DNA of 64,000 nucleotides from an uncultured Planctomycetaceae bacterium (GCA_964436865.1 CAYTFK010000002.1:20890-84889), one strand, 5' to 3'; shown: positions 56,324-64,000, numbered from the stretch's first letter. Notes: a model not told the origin generated them from the sequence alone. Program-made: numbers and translations.

Positions 56324-57460
56324 TCAATCGTCACTCTCGGCGGGGTCGCGCAGCGTCACCGTGAATGTGCTCCCTGCGTCCGGCCGGCTATCGACCGTCA
56401 CGGAGCCCCGGTAGAGCGCGGCGAGTTTCTGGACGATGGAAAGGCCCAGGCCGCTGCCAAGAATTTCGCGCGTCTTGTCGTTCCGGATGCGAACGAATTC
56501 ATGAAACAGTTGCGATCGTTCGTCGTCAGTCATGCCGATACCCGTATCGGTCACCGTGAGGCGCACCGTGTCGCCTTGACGTTCGATCCCTATCTCGACC
56601 GACCCGCCGTCGCGGTTGTACTTCACCGCGTTTGAGACCAGATTGTTGAGAATCATCTGCAACTCGCCGCGATCGGCCGCTAGTGTAACCGCCGGTTCGT
56701 CGAGCAGTCGGATGGTGATCCCGCGTCCGGCGGCCTGCGCGGCCACGGTCTCGATCGCCGATTGGGCCGCCGCCTTGAGGCACACCGGTTCGATCTGCCG
56801 GTTCTTGCGGCCCGACTCGATGTGTGTCAGATCCAGCAAGTCGTCGATGAGCTTCCGCATGCCGTCTAGCCGGGCATGGCAACGGCCGAGGGCTTGGGAG
56901 TAGGCAGCCAGTTCGTTGCCCATCGCACGATCGTCAAGCATCGCGAGATAGCCGTCGATGGCGTTCAGTGGGGCCTTGAGTTCATGGCCGAGCACGCGGA
57001 TGAACTCGAAGCGGACTTGTCGCTTCTCGTCGGCCAGGCGCCGAGTCTGCTTGGCGAGTATCAGGCGGGCCGCCGCCTTGCGGACCGTGCTGCGAAGTTC
57101 GTCCGGCGTGAAAGGCTTGGCGAGAAAATCGTAGGCCCCGCGCTTGGTGGCGGTCACGGCAGTCTCGATCGAGGCGTACGCCGTGATCATGATCACGAGC
57201 ATGTCGAGCTTCATGCCTGCCAGGCGGTCAAGCACGTCGAGCCCGCTGATGCCCGGCATCTTGTGATCCAGCAGCAGGATGTCGGGCGGTTCGGTCTGGA
57301 TCTTCTCCAGCGCCGCTTCGCCCGACTCCGCCTGATCGACGGCGAAGCCGATCGGGCCGGCAATGTCGGGCATAGTGAAACTGAACTCTCGGAGCGTCCG
57401 CTCGACGCCCCGCCGCATGCCGAATTCGTCGTCGGTAACCAGAACGCGGAGCGTTTCCAT
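56324..57460 (-). CDS. hybrid receiver-histidine kinase (REC-HisKA-HATPase)
   Basis: REC domain (VLVTDDE...LLLDHKMPG...KP). H-box LGHELKAPLN. N box LVSNAVKYN. G boxes DTGIGM and GSGLGLS. Confidence 0.88.
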   Translation of the reverse strand: METLRVLVTDDEFGMRRGVERTLREFSFTMPDIAGPIGFAVDQAESGEAALEKIQTEPPDILLLDHKMPGISGLDVLDRLAGMKLDMLVIMITAYASIETAVTATKRGAYDFLAKPFTPDELRSTVRKAAARLILAKQTRRLADEKRQVRFEFIRVLGHELKAPLNAIDGYLAMLDDRAMGNELAAYSQALGRCHARLDGMRKLIDDLLDLTHIESGRKNRQIEPVCLKAAAQSAIETVAAQAAGRGITIRLLDEPAVTLAADRGELQMILNNLVSNAVKYNRDGGSVEIGIERQGDTVRLTVTDTGIGMTDDERSQLFHEFVRIRNDKTREILGSGLGLSIVQKLAALYRGSVTVDSRPDAGSTFTVTLRDPAESDD

Positions 57461-57466
57461 GGCGGT

Positions 57467-57979
57467 TCAATTCGTCAACAGCCGCTCGATCTCGGTGCTG
57501 AGCTGCTCGAAGCGGATCGGCTTGGTGAGAAAGGCGTCGGCCTTGATCCAGGACCGTTCCTCCGCCGTCGCCGTATCGAACTCCAGGCCCGTCTCGCGGT
57601 TCACCGAGCTCACGAGGATGATGGGGATCGACGGATCTTTCTTCTTGATATGATAGCAGAGCGTGAAGCCGCCGTCAGGATTCTCCATCATCAGGTCGAC
57701 CACTGCCAGGTCGGGCCGGCGGTGCGAGAGGATCTCCTCGGCCCGGCTCTCCCCTTCGGCGATGATCACCTCGAAGCCCGCGGCCTCGAGCCGCGTCTTC
57801 TGCTGGAAAAGGAAATCGGCGTCGTCGTCGACCAGCAGGACGATCTTGTTGGCTTGTTCGATGCTCATGGCTTCGTGCTTTCTCGGAGACGGGTTGATAC
57901 GTTCTTGCAGCATTTCCAGCCGGTAGGCGATCACGGGCGCTGCCTGGATGGACGGGATAATTGGGGTGCGGGGGATCAT
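57467..57979 (-). CDS. single-domain response regulator (CheY-like receiver, no output domain)
   Basis: REC motifs (LLVDDD, DLAVVDLMM, LVSS, LTKP). The ATG at 57979 forms an ATGA overlap with the upstream kinase stop. An alternative ATG at 57868 (MSIEQANK) gives a minimal 133-aa receiver. Confidence 0.85.
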   Translation of the reverse strand: MIPRTPIIPSIQAAPVIAYRLEMLQERINPSPRKHEAMSIEQANKIVLLVDDDADFLFQQKTRLEAAGFEVIIAEGESRAEEILSHRRPDLAVVDLMMENPDGGFTLCYHIKKKDPSIPIILVSSVNRETGLEFDTATAEERSWIKADAFLTKPIRFEQLSTEIERLLTN

Positions 57980-59955
57980 TCGCGGCGGGGCAAGGTTACG
58001 GTGAACGCGGTCCAGGTCGGCCCCACGGCCGGATCGGGCTGCGAATCCACGCGGATATCGCCGCAGTGCATCTTGATGATCCCGTAGCTCACCGCCAGCC
58101 CCAGGCCCGTTCCCTTGCCCGATTCCTTGGTCGTGAAGAACGGCTCAAAGATCTTGGCGAGATTCTGCTTCGGGATGCCGACGCCCGTGTCGCTCACCTG
58201 CACCGATACGCGCTGGGCGTCGCCGCTGGTGCGGATCGTCAGGCGGCCGCCGTGGACCATGGCGGCCATCGCATTGGTGACCAGGTTGGTGAGCACCTGG
58301 ATGATCTGGTCGCCGTCCACCTCGACGATCGGGTCGTCAAGGTCGTGGCGGACGTCAATTGAAATGTCGTCCGGCACCCTGGTCGCGTTCAGGGTCCGAT
58401 CGATGAGGTTTCGCAGATCGACCGGTTGCCGGACGACTTTGTGCTGGCGGGCGAAATGGAGCAGCCCCGCGACGATTTTCTTGCAGCGATCAGCCTGCTC
58501 GGTAATCATCGTCAGGTCGTCGCGAATCCGCGGATCCTGGCACTCATCGAGCAGGAGGTGTGCATACATCAGGACCACGCCAAGCGGGTTGTTCACTTCA
58601 TGGGCAATCCCTGCCGCCAACTGCCCCATGCTGGCCATCTTCTCCGACTGCATGAGGGCTTCCTGGGTGCGGGCGAGCTGCCGGTTCGAGGCCTCGATGT
58701 CGGCCAGCGCGCACTGGAGCTGATCGATCATGAATGGCAGGCACATCTCGTTTTCTGCCAGCCCCTTATAGATCGCCACGGCATGCTCGCGGCAGGAATC
58801 GTATCCGCAGGCTCCGCAATTCAACTCGTCATCGGGGGAGTACTTCCCCATCCCGGCCATGATCTCGGTCAGCTCCTCCGGCGCCGGAAGCGGGATCCGC
58901 TGGTCGTTGGGCTGGAACGTCCGCCGCAGATCGAGATCGCTGAAGCGGTCCATGTCGCCCTGCCACTGCTCGATGTCGAGGGCCGCCATGCGGCGGTTGA
59001 CATGCACGCGGACATGGCGGCGGCGGTTGAACAGCGGCAGATCGTTGTTGATCCCGGCCCCCATGATGCAGCCTTCGCAGCACAGGGCTTCGAGCAGCTT
59101 CGCCCCCAGATCGCCGTCGGAGAACTCCTTGATCGCCTCGATCATGTGGGCGCGGCCCTGCGTCGAGACGACTTCGCCGTTCATCAAGTCTTCTTCAATC
59201 TCGGCGGCCTGGAGGATGCCGCGGCTGATGGGGAACAAGCCGCCAGCGGCGCCGTGGGGCGGGTCGAAATGGCTCGGATCTATCGCGCCGGGCCGGATGC
59301 CTTGCTCCTGGCACATGCGGCGAAATTCAGCAAAGGTCAGCACGCCGTCGATCTCGGCCGCTACTTCCTCCGCCTCCGCTTCACACTTCTTCGCGATGCA
59401 CGGCCCGATGAAGACCACGTTGACCTCGCGGCCGTGCAACGCGCGGATGACGCGTGCCGTTGCAATCATCGGCGATACGACCGGGGCAAGCGACCCAACC
59501 ATCTGCGGATAGTACTTCTGGACGTAACTGGCGACCGCCGGACAGGTGGTGGCGATATGGCGATGGCCGTTCGTGTTCCCCACCAGCCGGCGATACTGCC
59601 GGGCAACCAGGTCGGCGCCAAACGACACCTCGTGGACAAGGTGGAAGCCCAACGCGCGGGCCATGCCCGCCACTTCCTCCGCCGAGGCATCGATGAATTC
59701 GGCAGGGAAACTGGGGGCGAAGCACGCCGCCACCCGCTCTCCCGACTGGATGAGCTCCCTTACTTGCGGAACGGTGTCACGGATCTGCTTGGCTCGCTGC
59801 GAGCACACGCGGACGCAGTTTCCGCACGCGATGCATCGGTCCCCAATCACCTCGGCCTGCCCGGCGACTATGCGAATCGCCTTGGCCGGACACTCGCGGA
59901 CGCACGTGTAGCACATGCGGCAGCGTTCGCCGATAGTGGTGATGTAGGCGTTCAT
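57976..59955 (-). CDS. [FeFe]-hydrogenase-like sensory domain fused to a histidine kinase
   Basis: Two N-terminal 4Fe-4S motifs ([24 protein letters not shown]). H-cluster-type motifs in variant form ([19 protein letters not shown]). Cys-rich CGACGYDSC module. Then H-box AHEVNNP and HATPase boxes ([21 protein letters not shown]). Confidence 0.88.
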
Positions 59956-60022: not shown

Positions 60023-61807
60023 TCAGACCAGGGCCTCACGTCTCACGTAATGGGTATGCAGCAGGTGGTGGCTCTTCTCGCCGAGCGGCACGCCCAGATA
60101 CTCATTGTACAAGCGCTGGACGGCCTCATTGGCGTGCGAGGTTCGGACGCTCTCGCGATCGTCGATCTCATACAGGGCCTGCATCCGCGACCTCACCGCA
60201 CTGGAATCGGTGCCGATCGGCTGGCCGCCGCCGTTGATGCAGCCGCCGGGGCAGGTCATCACCTCGATGAAGTGCAGATCCTTGCGTTTGCCCGCCCGCA
60301 ATTCGTCCAGCAGTCGCCGGGCGTTGCCCAGACCGCTCACCACGGCGACCCCCAGTTCGATGCCGTTGACCGCCACGCGGGCTTCTTTCACGCCCTCCAG
60401 GCCACGCACCGCTTGCACATGAAGATCGGGCAGTTCCTGGCCGGTGACCAGGTAATGCGCCGTGCGGATCGCCGCCTCCATCACGCCGCCCGATGCCCCA
60501 AACAGCTTGCCCGCCGTGGTCCGTTCGCCAAATGGCGTGTCGGCCGTGTCGGGGGCGAGTTCCCGCAGGTCGATGCTTCGCATGCGAATCAGCTTGGCGA
60601 GTTCCCGAGTGGTGAGCACCGCGTCGACGTCGGCCACCCCGTTGTGGGTCAGCTCGCTGCGGCCGGCTTCAAACTTCTTCGCCGTGCAGGGCATGATGCT
60701 GACGGTGAAGATCTTGTCGCGATCAATCCCCTCGCGCTCGGCGAAGTAGCTCTTGATCACCGCGCCCATCATCTGCTGAGGGCTCTTGCAGGTGGAGAGG
60801 TTCTCGATGAAGTTGGGATAGAACGTCTCGACGGTCTTGATCCAGCCCGGCGAGCAACTGGTCATCATCGGCAGCTTCAGGCCGTTGGTCAGCCGGTGGA
60901 CAAACTCGGAGGCCTCCTCCATGATCGTCAGATCGGCGGTGAAGCCGGTGTCGAACACGCGCTTGAAACCGAGCCGCCGCAGGGCGGCCGTCATCGCTCC
61001 GACGACGTCCATGCCGGCCGGCAACCCGAATTCCTCGCCCAGTGTCACCGACACCGCGGGGGCGTGCTGCACGACGACGAACTTCTCGGGGTTTTCCAGC
61101 GCCGCAAGCACATCCTTCAAATGGCTCTGCTCGCTCAGCGCCCCGGTCGGGCAGGCCATGATGCACTGCCCGCAGTTGATGCAACTCGATATGTTCAGGC
61201 CTTCGTCGAACGCGGTGCCGACCTTGGTCTTTGACCCTCGGCCGATGAAGTCGATGGCGGCGATCCCCTGGACCTCCTCGCAGACGCGGACGCACTTGCC
61301 GCAGAGGATGCATTTCGCCGGGTCGCGGCTGATCGAGGGGCTGGAATTGTCGAGGAAATGCCGGCTCTTCTCCCCCGCGAAACGGCGGCTGCGGACGCCC
61401 AGCTCCTCGGCCATCCCCTGCAGGTCGCAGCGCCCGTTGCGGACGCAGTACAGGCAATCGTCGGGGTGGTTGGCCAGGAGCAATTCGATGATCGTCTTGC
61501 GGGCGTCGACGGCGCGCTTGGAATGCGTCTGAACCTTCATTCCCTCGGCGACCGGGTAGGCACAGCTCGGCACCAGCCCGCGCTGCCCCTCGACCTCGAC
61601 CACGCACATCCGACAAGCGCCGGTGGCCGGCAGGCCGTCGATGTTGCACAGTGTGGGCACCTTGATTCCCACGCGACGCAGCGCGGTCAGGAGCATCTCC
61701 CCTTTTTCGGCCTGGACGGACCGCCCGTTGACTTCAATGGTGACCATGGGCTTGCTTACCTCTTCTTGGTATTCGCTGGGACAACCGAACCCGGCCCCGA
61801 CCACCAT
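60023..61807 (-). CDS. hydA: [FeFe]-hydrogenase catalytic subunit HydA-like (M3 architecture plus small-subunit-like tail)
   Basis: N-terminal 2Fe-2S fold, HxxxCxxCxxxxxC, two 4Fe-4S motifs and H-domain motifs TSCSPGW / MPCTAKKFE / EVMTCPGGCINGGGQP. The ATG at 61807 has GGGAGG 5 nt upstream. An alternative ATG at 61747 gives MVTIEVNG. Confidence 0.9.
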   Translation of the reverse strand: MVVGAGFGCPSEYQEEVSKPMVTIEVNGRSVQAEKGEMLLTALRRVGIKVPTLCNIDGLPATGACRMCVVEVEGQRGLVPSCAYPVAEGMKVQTHSKRAVDARKTIIELLLANHPDDCLYCVRNGRCDLQGMAEELGVRSRRFAGEKSRHFLDNSSPSISRDPAKCILCGKCVRVCEEVQGIAAIDFIGRGSKTKVGTAFDEGLNISSCINCGQCIMACPTGALSEQSHLKDVLAALENPEKFVVVQHAPAVSVTLGEEFGLPAGMDVVGAMTAALRRLGFKRVFDTGFTADLTIMEEASEFVHRLTNGLKLPMMTSCSPGWIKTVETFYPNFIENLSTCKSPQQMMGAVIKSYFAEREGIDRDKIFTVSIMPCTAKKFEAGRSELTHNGVADVDAVLTTRELAKLIRMRSIDLRELAPDTADTPFGERTTAGKLFGASGGVMEAAIRTAHYLVTGQELPDLHVQAVRGLEGVKEARVAVNGIELGVAVVSGLGNARRLLDELRAGKRKDLHFIEVMTCPGGCINGGGQPIGTDSSAVRSRMQALYEIDDRESVRTSHANEAVQRLYNEYLGVPLGEKSHHLLHTHYVRREALV

Positions 61808-61874: not shown

Positions 61875-63851
61875 CTAAGCTTTCATGACCGCGCCCAGCC
61901 GGCAGGCATCCAGACAGGATCCGCAGCCGATGCAACGGTCTTCGATGATGTAATGGGGATTCTTCGGCGAGCCGATGATCGCATCGGCGGGGCACTTCTT
62001 GGCGCACAGCGTGCAGCCCTTGCATTTCTCCGCATTGATCGAGTACGTCACCAGTTCGGCGCAGGCCCCGGCCGGACAGCGCCGGTCGTACACGTGGGCC
62101 TCGTACTCGTGGCGGAACCACCTGAGCGTGCTCAGCACCGGGTTGGGGGCCGTCTGCCCCAGGCCGCAGAGGCTCGTGTCGCGGATCGTCTCCGCCAGCC
62201 GCTGCAGGTGGAGCACGCTCTGGAACCGCTCCAGGGCCTCCAGCTCCTTCTCGTGCCGGCGCCCCCGGGTGATCCGCTTGAGGATCTCCAGCATCCGCCG
62301 CGTTCCCTCGCGGCAGGGAATGCATTTGCCGCAGCTCTCGCGCTGGATGAAGTCCATGAAGAACTTGGCCACGTCGACCATGCAGGTCTCTTCATCCATC
62401 ACCACCAGGCCGCCGGAGCCCATCATCGCACCGACGGTCTTCAGCGACTCGTAGTCGACGTCGATGTCGAGGTGCTGCTCCGGAATGCAGCCGCCCGACG
62501 GCCCGCCGATCTGCACCGATTTGTACTTCTTGCCGTAGGGGATGCCGCCGCCGATGTCGAACACGATCTGGCGGACCGTTGTTCCCATCGCCACCTCGAC
62601 CAGGCCCGTCCGGGCGACCTTCCCCGACAGTGCGAAGACCTTCGTCCCCTTGCTGGTCTTGGTCCCCAGAGCGCTGAACCACTCGTGGCCGCGGTCGATG
62701 AGCATCGGCACGTTGGCCAGCGTCTCGACGTTGTTGATAATCGTCGGCTTCGCAAATAGGCCGCTCACCGCGGGGAACGGCGGACGCGGACGCGGCATGC
62801 CGCGTTTTCCCTCGATACTGTTGATCAGCGCCGTCTCCTCCCCGCAGACAAACGCCCCGGCTCCCTGCTTGATCACGATGTGCAGCGAGAAACCGGTGCC
62901 CAGCATGCTGTCGCCCAGCAGTCCGTACGACTCGGCCTGGCCGATGGCGATCTTGAGCCGCTCGATGGCCAGCGGATACTCCGCCCGGATGTAAACGTAG
63001 GCCTTCGAGGCGCCGATCGCATAGGCGGCGATCGCCATGCCTTCCAGCAGCCGGTGCGGGTCCCCTTCGATCACCGCCCGATCCATGAACGCGCCGGGGT
63101 CTCCCTCGTCGGCGTTGCAGACGAGATACTTCTGGCCGGCCTGCGAGGCACGGGCGAACTTCCACTTCTTGCCGGTCGAAAAGCCGCCGCCCCCCCGGCC
63201 GCGAAGCCCGCTCCGTTCAACCGTGTCGCAAACCTCGTCGGGCGTCTGCTTGCGGAGCACCTTGGCCAATGCCGCGTAGCCGCCGCGGGCGATGTACTCA
63301 TCGATCGAATTCGGATCGATCAGGCCGCAGTTGGCCAGCACCCACCGGGTTTGCGGAGCGAAGAACGGATGCTCGTCGAGGTACGGCACCTCGCTCCAGG
63401 GGTTGAGGCCGCTTGATCGATGCTGGCCGAGTACGCTGTCGCGCGGCACGTCGCCGCGAAATACGCCGTCCAGCACGGCGTCGACCTCTTTCCTCGAAAT
63501 CCTCTCGAAGGCCAGTCGCGTCCGGCCGGGCATCTGCACTTCGACGATCGGTTCGGCCGAACAGAGGCCGATGCAGCCGACCTCGACGACATCGGCCTCG
63601 ATGCCGTGCCGCTGAAGGTACTCGCGCACCGCCGCGATCGTCCCCTTCGCCCCCGCGCCCAGGCCGCAGGTGCCCGCGCCGATGAAGATGGCCGGACGAA
63701 CCAACTGCTCGCGCCGCAACTCGCCAAAGCGCCGCTCGCGCTCCGCGCGGTCCTGGCCGTTGCCGTCCGGCCCATCGGCCAAAACCCAGTCGAGAATCTG
63801 CCGGCCGGCCTCGGGAGCGGCCAGGGTGCTGTCTGCGTCAGGCTGCTTCAT
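61875..63851 (-). CDS. hydB: NuoF-like flavoprotein subunit (HydB/HndC type) of an NAD(P)-linked hydrogenase
   Basis: N-terminal thioredoxin-like 2Fe-2S (GTCGLGAGA...CIGLCSAEP). FMN/NADH motifs (GRGGGGFSTGKKW, GAGAFVCGEETAL). N3 cluster CGKCIPCREG. Two C-terminal 4Fe-4S motifs. ATG at 63851 with GGAGG upstream. Confidence 0.9.
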   Translation of the reverse strand: MKQPDADSTLAAPEAGRQILDWVLADGPDGNGQDRAERERRFGELRREQLVRPAIFIGAGTCGLGAGAKGTIAAVREYLQRHGIEADVVEVGCIGLCSAEPIVEVQMPGRTRLAFERISRKEVDAVLDGVFRGDVPRDSVLGQHRSSGLNPWSEVPYLDEHPFFAPQTRWVLANCGLIDPNSIDEYIARGGYAALAKVLRKQTPDEVCDTVERSGLRGRGGGGFSTGKKWKFARASQAGQKYLVCNADEGDPGAFMDRAVIEGDPHRLLEGMAIAAYAIGASKAYVYIRAEYPLAIERLKIAIGQAESYGLLGDSMLGTGFSLHIVIKQGAGAFVCGEETALINSIEGKRGMPRPRPPFPAVSGLFAKPTIINNVETLANVPMLIDRGHEWFSALGTKTSKGTKVFALSGKVARTGLVEVAMGTTVRQIVFDIGGGIPYGKKYKSVQIGGPSGGCIPEQHLDIDVDYESLKTVGAMMGSGGLVVMDEETCMVDVAKFFMDFIQRESCGKCIPCREGTRRMLEILKRITRGRRHEKELEALERFQSVLHLQRLAETIRDTSLCGLGQTAPNPVLSTLRWFRHEYEAHVYDRRCPAGACAELVTYSINAEKCKGCTLCAKKCPADAIIGSPKNPHYIIEDRCIGCGSCLDACRLGAVMKA

Positions 63852-64000
63852 GGCCGTTTCCCTCCGCCGCCTTCCTGTAAGAATCAAGAATCTTGCTTAC
63901 CTTCTGTGTGGTGACCCCGGCGTGAAACTCGCCATTGATGGCGATTACCGGGGCCAAACCGCACGCGCCGATGCAGGCGACCACTTCCAGACTGAACATG
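63838..64000 (-). CDS. hydC: NuoE-like [2Fe-2S] subunit (HydC/HndA type), 3' end only
   Basis: Minus-strand frame reads ...FSLEVVACIGACGLAPVIAINGEFH...GNGHEAA*, matching the NuoE C-terminal CxxxC...AP motif. It runs off the window edge and overlaps the hydB start by 14 nt. Confidence 0.78.
   Translation of the reverse strand, partial: MFSLEVVACIGACGLAPVIAINGEFHAGVTTQKVSKILDSYRKAAEGNGHEAA

Follow-up and report, generated by a model that had tools for sequence, protein, structure and literature searches.

The L1 (P1) motif of CpI, the prototypical group A [FeFe]-hydrogenase of C. pasteurianum, is TSCCP, with C299 serving as the proton relay and C300 as a ligand of the [4Fe-4S] subcluster of the H-cluster, [4Fe-4S]H. 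CpI (PDB 4XDC, 3C8Y) is a monomeric, ferredoxin-dependent enzyme. T. kivui HydA1 (PDB 8A6T, 8BEW) also has the canonical TSCCP, with Cys299 as the cluster ligand. By contrast, HydA1 of the Gram-positive acetogen A. woodii (PDB 7Q4V, 7Q4W, 8A5E), a subunit of the electron-bifurcating HydABC(D), harbors TSCSP, and Katsyv et al. (2023; PMC10021017) describe its Ser301 as replacing T. kivui Cys299 as ligand of [4Fe-4S]H (cluster A1), an assignment that derives from the cryo-EM map. According to the same study, the A. woodii TSCSP enzyme has a typical H-cluster FTIR signature and its activity is similar to that of the T. kivui TSCCP enzyme. Kertess et al. (2017; PMC5855289), who number the L1 ligand C115 and the relay C114, found serine at the ligand position in ~20% of putative hydrogenase sequences. 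They also found that the engineered C115S variant of CrHydA1 from Chlamydomonas reinhardtii loses most of its [4Fe-4S] cluster, does not take up [2Fe] and is inactive. Thus, serine at the L1 ligand position was already known, from about a fifth of sequences by 2017 and as a ligand in a solved, active enzyme by 2023. Further examples come from Melainabacteria, whose confurcating hydrogenases contain TSCSPGW (Di Rienzi et al. 2013), and from a 2024 study of Hydrogenedentota (PMC11406978), where four of the five A3 subtypes commonly have serine at position 5 of P1. Motif screens have been run with the strict form TSCCPxW, discarding all else (PMC6085437). Here we describe a TSCSP-containing HydA encoded by an uncultured planctomycete and compare it with these systems.

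A HydABC-type operon in a planctomycete genome

The window analyzed is a 64,000-nucleotide stretch of a contig from an uncultured Planctomycetaceae bacterium (GCA_964436865.1, CAYTFK010000002.1:20890-84889). Its source genome is a 7.1-Mb MAG that is 94% complete, with 7.8% estimated contamination, and homologue searches identify Thermoguttaceae and other Planctomycetota as the nearest named relatives. The genes considered here are as follows.

63838..64000, minus strand: hydC, NuoE-like 2Fe-2S subunit (NuoE, 8.4e-46; PF01257 in the orthologous operon); this is the 3' end of a gene that runs past the window on the contig
61875..63851, minus strand: hydB, NuoF-like FMN/NAD subunit, extended at its N terminus and carrying a 2x[4Fe-4S] domain at its C terminus (Complex1_51K, NADH_4Fe-4S, SLBB, two Fer4; nuoF_fam, 9.4e-148)
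60023..61807, minus strand: hydA, catalytic subunit of a HydABC-type [FeFe]-hydrogenase; 594-aa ORF with an M3-type F-domain and an H-domain
57976..59955, minus strand: HydS-like fusion of a group C putative sensory [FeFe]-hydrogenase domain with a histidine kinase (PF02906, 3.4e-44; FeS, HisKA, HATPase_c)
57467-57979, minus strand: receiver-only protein, downstream of hydS
56324-57460, minus strand: REC-HisKA-HATPase hybrid kinase, downstream of hydS

The hydC and hydB genes lie directly upstream of hydA on the same strand, with the hydC stop at 63838, and the same hydCBA arrangement is found on contigs of a sister species. Comparison with a 658-aa orthologue suggests that hydB likely starts at the ATG at 63851 rather than at the TTG at 63887 where the listed ORF begins. 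Similarly, hydA probably starts at Met21 (61747), because its homologues are ~573 aa long and residues 1-17 have pLDDT values below 50 in the predicted structure.

HydA matches the PF02906 (Fe_hyd_lg_C) H-domain over its full length (1-245/245, E 1.7e-93) and ends in a small-subunit-like C terminus (Pfam Fe_hyd_SSU). The F-domain contains Pfam matches to Fer2_4 (20-96), NADH-G_4Fe-4S_3 (103-142) and Fer4_Nqo3/Fer4_7 (157-224), corresponding to 2Fe-2S, NuoG-type 4Fe-4S and 2x[4Fe-4S] accessory domains, and the cysteine columns of these domains are conserved in the alignment. Against NCBIfam NF040763, "NADH-dependent [FeFe] hydrogenase, group A6", the protein scores 836.5 bits (cut-off 765) and covers 1-571/571 of the model. 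The genome, with its 7.8% contamination, also encodes the maturases HydE (314.6 bits, cut-off 254.6), HydG (501.8 bits, cut-off 312) and HydF (563 bits, cut-off 325.6). It contains three further catalytic HydA paralogues, two with TSCSP and one, on contig C82, with TSCCP, as well as a second HydS-like gene.

Ser319 aligns with the [4Fe-4S]H ligand of CpI

The H-cluster motifs of HydA are located at the following positions.

60848..60862, minus strand: L1 (P1) motif TSCSP, placed by sequence and by ungapped alignment to 8a6t, 7q4v and CpI
60668..60694, minus strand: L2 motif MPCTAKKFE, residues 372-380 (Met372, Cys374 and Lys377 correspond to CpI M353, C355 and K358)
60218..60265, minus strand: L3 motif EVMTCPGGCINGGGQP, residues 515-530 (Met517, Cys519 and Cys523 correspond to CpI M497, C499 and C503)

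L1 is encoded on the minus strand by ACC (60862-60860), AGT (60859-60857), TGC (60856-60854), TCG (60853-60851) and CCG (60850-60848), giving T316, S317, C318, S319 and P320 within PMMTSCSPGW (ORF stretch LPMMTSCSPGWIK). The codons and coordinates given for this motif in the original prediction are exact. The motif fits the documented TSC[CS]PxW form and does not fit the strict TSCCP form. As had also been predicted, L2 and L3 are canonical, except that L3 carries a threonine at the CpI A498 position. Threonine is the norm there in this clade; A. woodii has alanine instead (ELMACPGGC). The L2 sequence MPCTAKKFE is identical in 120 of 120 near homologues.

In phmmer alignments to solved structures, L1 and the 100 residues flanking it on each side align without gaps. 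The aligned L1 regions are LPMMTSCSPGWIKTVE in the HydA described here, FPMFTSCCPSWILAVE in T. kivui HydA1 (8a6t_A, E 2.1e-185), LPMITSCSPGWIKFIE in A. woodii HydA1 (7q4v_A, E 1.7e-176) and FPMFTSCCPGWVRQAE in CpI. Residue 319 aligns with T. kivui Cys299, A. woodii Ser301 and CpI C300. Because the alignment to CpI C300 is ungapped, Ser319 is placed at the ligand position and not at the relay position. Thus, the prediction that serine takes the cluster-ligand position while the relay cysteine is kept stands, on the ungapped alignments to CpI, T. kivui and A. woodii and on the findings of Katsyv et al. (2023). The proton pathway is also kept: C318, E298, E301, R305 and S338 correspond to CpI C299, E279, E282, R286 and S319, and most of the proton-pathway residues are invariant in the sequence alignment. 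An AlphaFold2 model of HydA, computed without cofactors, has a mean pLDDT of 87, rising to 93-95 over L1. It superposes on A. woodii 7q4w_A with a TM score of 0.93 and an rmsd of 2.0 Å, on T. kivui HydA with a TM score of 0.91 and on CpI with a TM score of 0.89.

The comparison with A. woodii HydA1 extends well beyond the serine. Both proteins combine an M3-type F-domain with an H-domain and a small-subunit-like C terminus; both carry L1 as (L)PM(I/M)TSCSPGWIK with serine at the [4Fe-4S]H ligand position, a cysteine in S(S/T)CKSPQ and L2 as MPCTAKK; and both have HydB and HydC partners. However, there are differences between the two systems. The proteins are ~47-55% identical, their hosts are an acetogen and a planctomycete, and A. 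woodii has an extra HydD subunit and no HydS-histidine kinase adjacent to its hydrogenase genes. T. kivui HydA1 is the best sequence match among the solved structures and shares the architecture and proton pathway of HydA, differing in its canonical L1. CpI, though ~40% identical and different from HydA in its L1, its monomeric state and its ferredoxin dependence, shares the fold, L2, L3 and the proton-pathway residues.

A HydS-like histidine kinase adjoins hydA

The HydS-like protein encoded next to hydA has ATTCPAV as its L1, in which the relay cysteine is missing and the ligand cysteine is kept, and GPCIAKK as its L2, with glycine at the CpI M353 position. Deviation of this type in L1 and L2 is a known hallmark of the group C sensory hydrogenases. 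Thermotoga maritima HydS likewise lacks the relay cysteine, having Ala131 where the protein here has threonine, and has glycine (Gly177) at the M353 position, as do ~51% of sensory enzymes. The two proteins differ in that the one described here is a HisKA/HATPase_c fusion (histidine-kinase-linked, C1-type), whereas T. maritima HydS has a PAS domain. The original prediction noted that both hydrogenase homologues of this locus have a non-canonical L1; this is true of TSCSP and of ATTCPAV, yet each is typical of its class. The receiver protein and the REC-HisKA-HATPase kinase (56324..57979) may form a phosphorelay with the HydS-kinase. By homology, such a phosphorelay adjoining hydCBA could possibly regulate hydrogenase expression.

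TSCSP is widespread among HydABC-type hydrogenases

Two surveys bear on how common the motif is. The less biased one used the 150 50%-identity clusters nearest the query, 121 of which have a recognizable L1; 25 of these 121 representatives (~21%) carry [TS]SCSP and 89 carry [TS]SCCP, in agreement with the published ~20%. The other took the best 80 related loci in species-representative genomes and found TSCSP in 70, a proportion that overstates the family-wide frequency because the loci were ranked by similarity to a TSCSP query. Among the 70 are loci from Planctomycetota (one of them in a Kuenenia MAG), Calditrichota, Bacteroidota, Verrucomicrobiota, Marinimicrobia, Fermentibacteria, Deltaproteobacteria (Smithella, Syntrophus), many Firmicutes, Armatimonadota and Melainabacteria, and named Firmicutes isolates with TSCSP include Holdemania massiliensis AP2 and Desulfotruncus alcoholivorax DSM 16058. 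Every one of the six serine codons occurs at the site (AGC 18, TCT 13, TCA 12, AGT 12, TCG 10 and TCC 5). In this same query-biased sample, a HydB gene lies within 3 kb of 68 of the 70 TSCSP loci and of 10 of the 10 TSCCP loci. Judging from these sequences, most HydABC-type relatives of the HydA described here appear to have serine at the position.

The two states have also exchanged repeatedly. On a maximum-likelihood tree of 192 H-domains the minimum number of Cys/Ser changes is 15 when nodes with support below 0.9 are collapsed, and it falls to 10 with a threshold of 0.95 and to 5 with 0.99; these are soft-polytomy parsimony lower bounds on the collapsed trees. A 117-sequence tree gave 15 changes.

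These data do not agree with the implication of the original prediction that TSCSP is unusual. With 25 of 121 representatives here, the proportion reported by Kertess et al. (2017) and the A. woodii enzyme, TSCSP proves to be common in active, well-characterized hydrogenases, which is the outcome that the prediction had itself set down as counting against it. As a natural variant, TSCSP is long established and maintained by selection; roughly one [FeFe]-hydrogenase in five carries it, as do most of the close HydABC relatives. The finding is therefore an ordinary one, since the swap is conserved, widespread and published, including in an active A. woodii enzyme.

Alternative explanations for the serine

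Were TCG an artefact of sequencing or assembly at a true TGC codon, two changes would be needed to produce it. A sister species, the hydA of which is 92.6% identical to the gene here in nucleotides and 98% in amino acids (~131 nucleotide differences, ~2% of residues), has TGC TCG at the same site in three independent assemblies (ENA ERZ4756920 and ERZ4756921, NCBI GCA_023382995.1). The nearest database homologues, at 75-98% identity, carry [TS]SCSP in 120 of 120 cases, and two further TSCSP paralogues are present within the same genome. The sister-species assemblies and the homologues together effectively refute an artefact, leaving it a negligible chance, and they bear out the earlier view that a sequencing error is unlikely. 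One argument offered for that view, that two changes separate TGC from TCG, is correct as a count but uninformative over evolutionary time, as a single change converts TGY to either TCY or AGY.

The serine could be genuine and still not bind iron, if a ligand swap or register shift made Cys318 or Cys340 the fourth ligand. Kertess et al. (2017; PMC5855289) proposed a neighboring cysteine as a stand-in ligand in the C115A variant, and the poor cluster binding of CrHydA1 C115S points the same way. Cys340, located in STCKSPQ at the CpI A321 position, is present in A. woodii and in the HydA described here and not in T. kivui or CpI, and cysteine at this position occurs somewhat more often in the Ser class than in the Cys class (82% vs 54%). 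However, Cys340 is found in 49 of 88 TSCCP representatives (56%) and is missing from 5 of 25 TSCSP representatives (20%), which rules it out as an obligatory substitute ligand. Moreover, a scan of every alignment column found no cysteine that the Ser class has and the Cys class lacks, and thus no compensating cysteine that varies together with the serine. A swap to Cys318 would require another route for proton delivery, while the retention of the full C299-type pathway argues that Cys318 keeps its relay role, and Ser301 itself is modeled as the ligand in A. woodii (PMC10021017). On this evidence, we consider that a swap is very unlikely. The inactivity of CrHydA1 C115S might instead suggest that serine marks loss of the H-cluster and that HydA is an impaired or non-catalytic paralogue, for example one with a regulatory or electron-transfer role only, and the genome does contain other HydA copies, including the TSCCP one on contig C82. 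Yet all other H-cluster and proton-pathway residues of HydA are conserved, hydA is under strong purifying selection, the hydCBA operon is complete and HydEFG are encoded in the genome. In addition, TSCSP leaves the A. woodii enzyme fully active, and serine is the apparent majority state in HydABC-type relatives from many phyla. We therefore judge a pseudogene or inactive paralogue to be highly improbable, given the conserved catalytic residues, the selection, the operon and the maturases.

Proposed role of Ser319 and implications

Our preferred reading, to which we assign a probability of roughly 85%, is that HydA is the catalytic subunit of a NAD(H)/ferredoxin-linked hydrogenase from a Thermoguttaceae-like planctomycete, that this enzyme is an ordinary and functional one of the HydABC type (group A3, NCBIfam "A6") and that Ser319 is most likely a ligand of [4Fe-4S]H. 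By homology with A. woodii Ser301, Ser319 would most likely bind one iron of the cluster through its oxygen, as a serinate, with Cys374, Cys519 and Cys523 as the predicted other three ligands. Cys318 would pass protons to the azadithiolate amine, and the HydABC complex would most likely couple H2 to NAD(H) and ferredoxin. As the A. woodii enzyme illustrates, TSCSP can go together with a normal H-cluster and with normal activity.

The same Cys-to-Ser swap at the L1 ligand position thus has opposite outcomes. In engineered CrHydA1 C115S it is inactivating, whereas the enzymes that carry TSCSP naturally are conserved, and that of A. woodii is active. Because the algal variant is dead and the A. 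woodii enzyme is active, tolerance of serine depends on the protein context. A bolder proposal is that the choice between cysteine and serine is an adaptive tuning knob of HydABC-type enzymes. We regard this as speculative and rather unlikely. If true, the choice might alter the potential of [4Fe-4S]H, the bias of catalysis or the robustness to oxidation and might hinge on second-shell residues, and it would explain the exchanges between serine and cysteine (at least 5-15), the presence of TSCSP and TSCCP paralogues in one genome and the dead algal swap.

For surveys of hydrogenase diversity, the consequence is that screens for strict TSCCPxW, such as that of PMC6085437, will overlook the majority of HydABC-type hydrogenases in Planctomycetota and in many other phyla. 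The HydABC family, where cysteine and serine each recur on comparable backgrounds, would be well suited to studying why natural TSCSP scaffolds tolerate serine and CrHydA1 C115S does not.

Start codons and the L3 motif

The open reading frame of hydA, which encodes the catalytic subunit of the HydABC-type [FeFe]-hydrogenase, is listed as follows.

From 61807, minus strand: hydA, start codon ATG, 594 aa

Almost every homologue has a length of 573-574 aa. Because these proteins align only from hydA residue 21 onward (MVTIEVNG), and pLDDT is below 50 at residues 1-17 of the predicted model, translation probably begins at Met21 (61747). Similarly, the adjoining hydB probably starts at ATG 63851 and not at TTG 63887, given the 658-aa length of its orthologue. 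The L3 motif of hydA reads EVMTCPGGC, which places Thr518 (60254-60256) at the position of A498 in CpI, the Clostridium pasteurianum reference enzyme. Alanine occupies this site in CpI and most enzymes; most members of the planctomycete clade have threonine.

Cysteine and serine states of L1

Besides the hydA described here, the source MAG encodes three more HydA paralogues of the catalytic type. Two of these have TSCSP, and the paralogue on contig C82 has TSCCP. The MAG also contains a second HydS-like gene with STACP as L1 and GPCVAKK as L2. The further HydA and HydS-like loci are as follows.

C93:15581-16489, locus L001
C74:162-1013, locus L003
C82:36-683, locus L004
C44:28668-29342, locus L005

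Since the paralogues include both TSCSP and TSCCP, one genome holds both the cysteine and the serine state of L1, unless contamination (7.8%) is the source. Among the TSCSP loci within the 80 best species-genome loci (L012-L091), the serine is encoded by AGY in 30 and by TCN in 40. The cysteine codon TGY is a single-step bridge between AGY and TCY, and the presence of both codon families, together with this bridge, fits repeated Cys/Ser exchanges on the tree.

Another L1 variant was seen in P0121, a predicted protein of 4122 aa among the 50%-identity cluster representatives. It contains seven tandem, near-identical [FeFe]-hydrogenase H-domains with a period of 444 aa, each with FTSCCASW (alanine replacing proline) as L1 and MPCTVKKTE as L2. 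P0121 could be a real polyprotein, read-through of a tandem gene array, or an assembly artefact.

A published census of bifurcating enzymes required a strict TSCCPxW L1 of HydA/HytA homologues and discarded the rest (PMC6085437). Such a filter would lose the HydABC-type enzymes with TSCSP, which are the majority among those found here.
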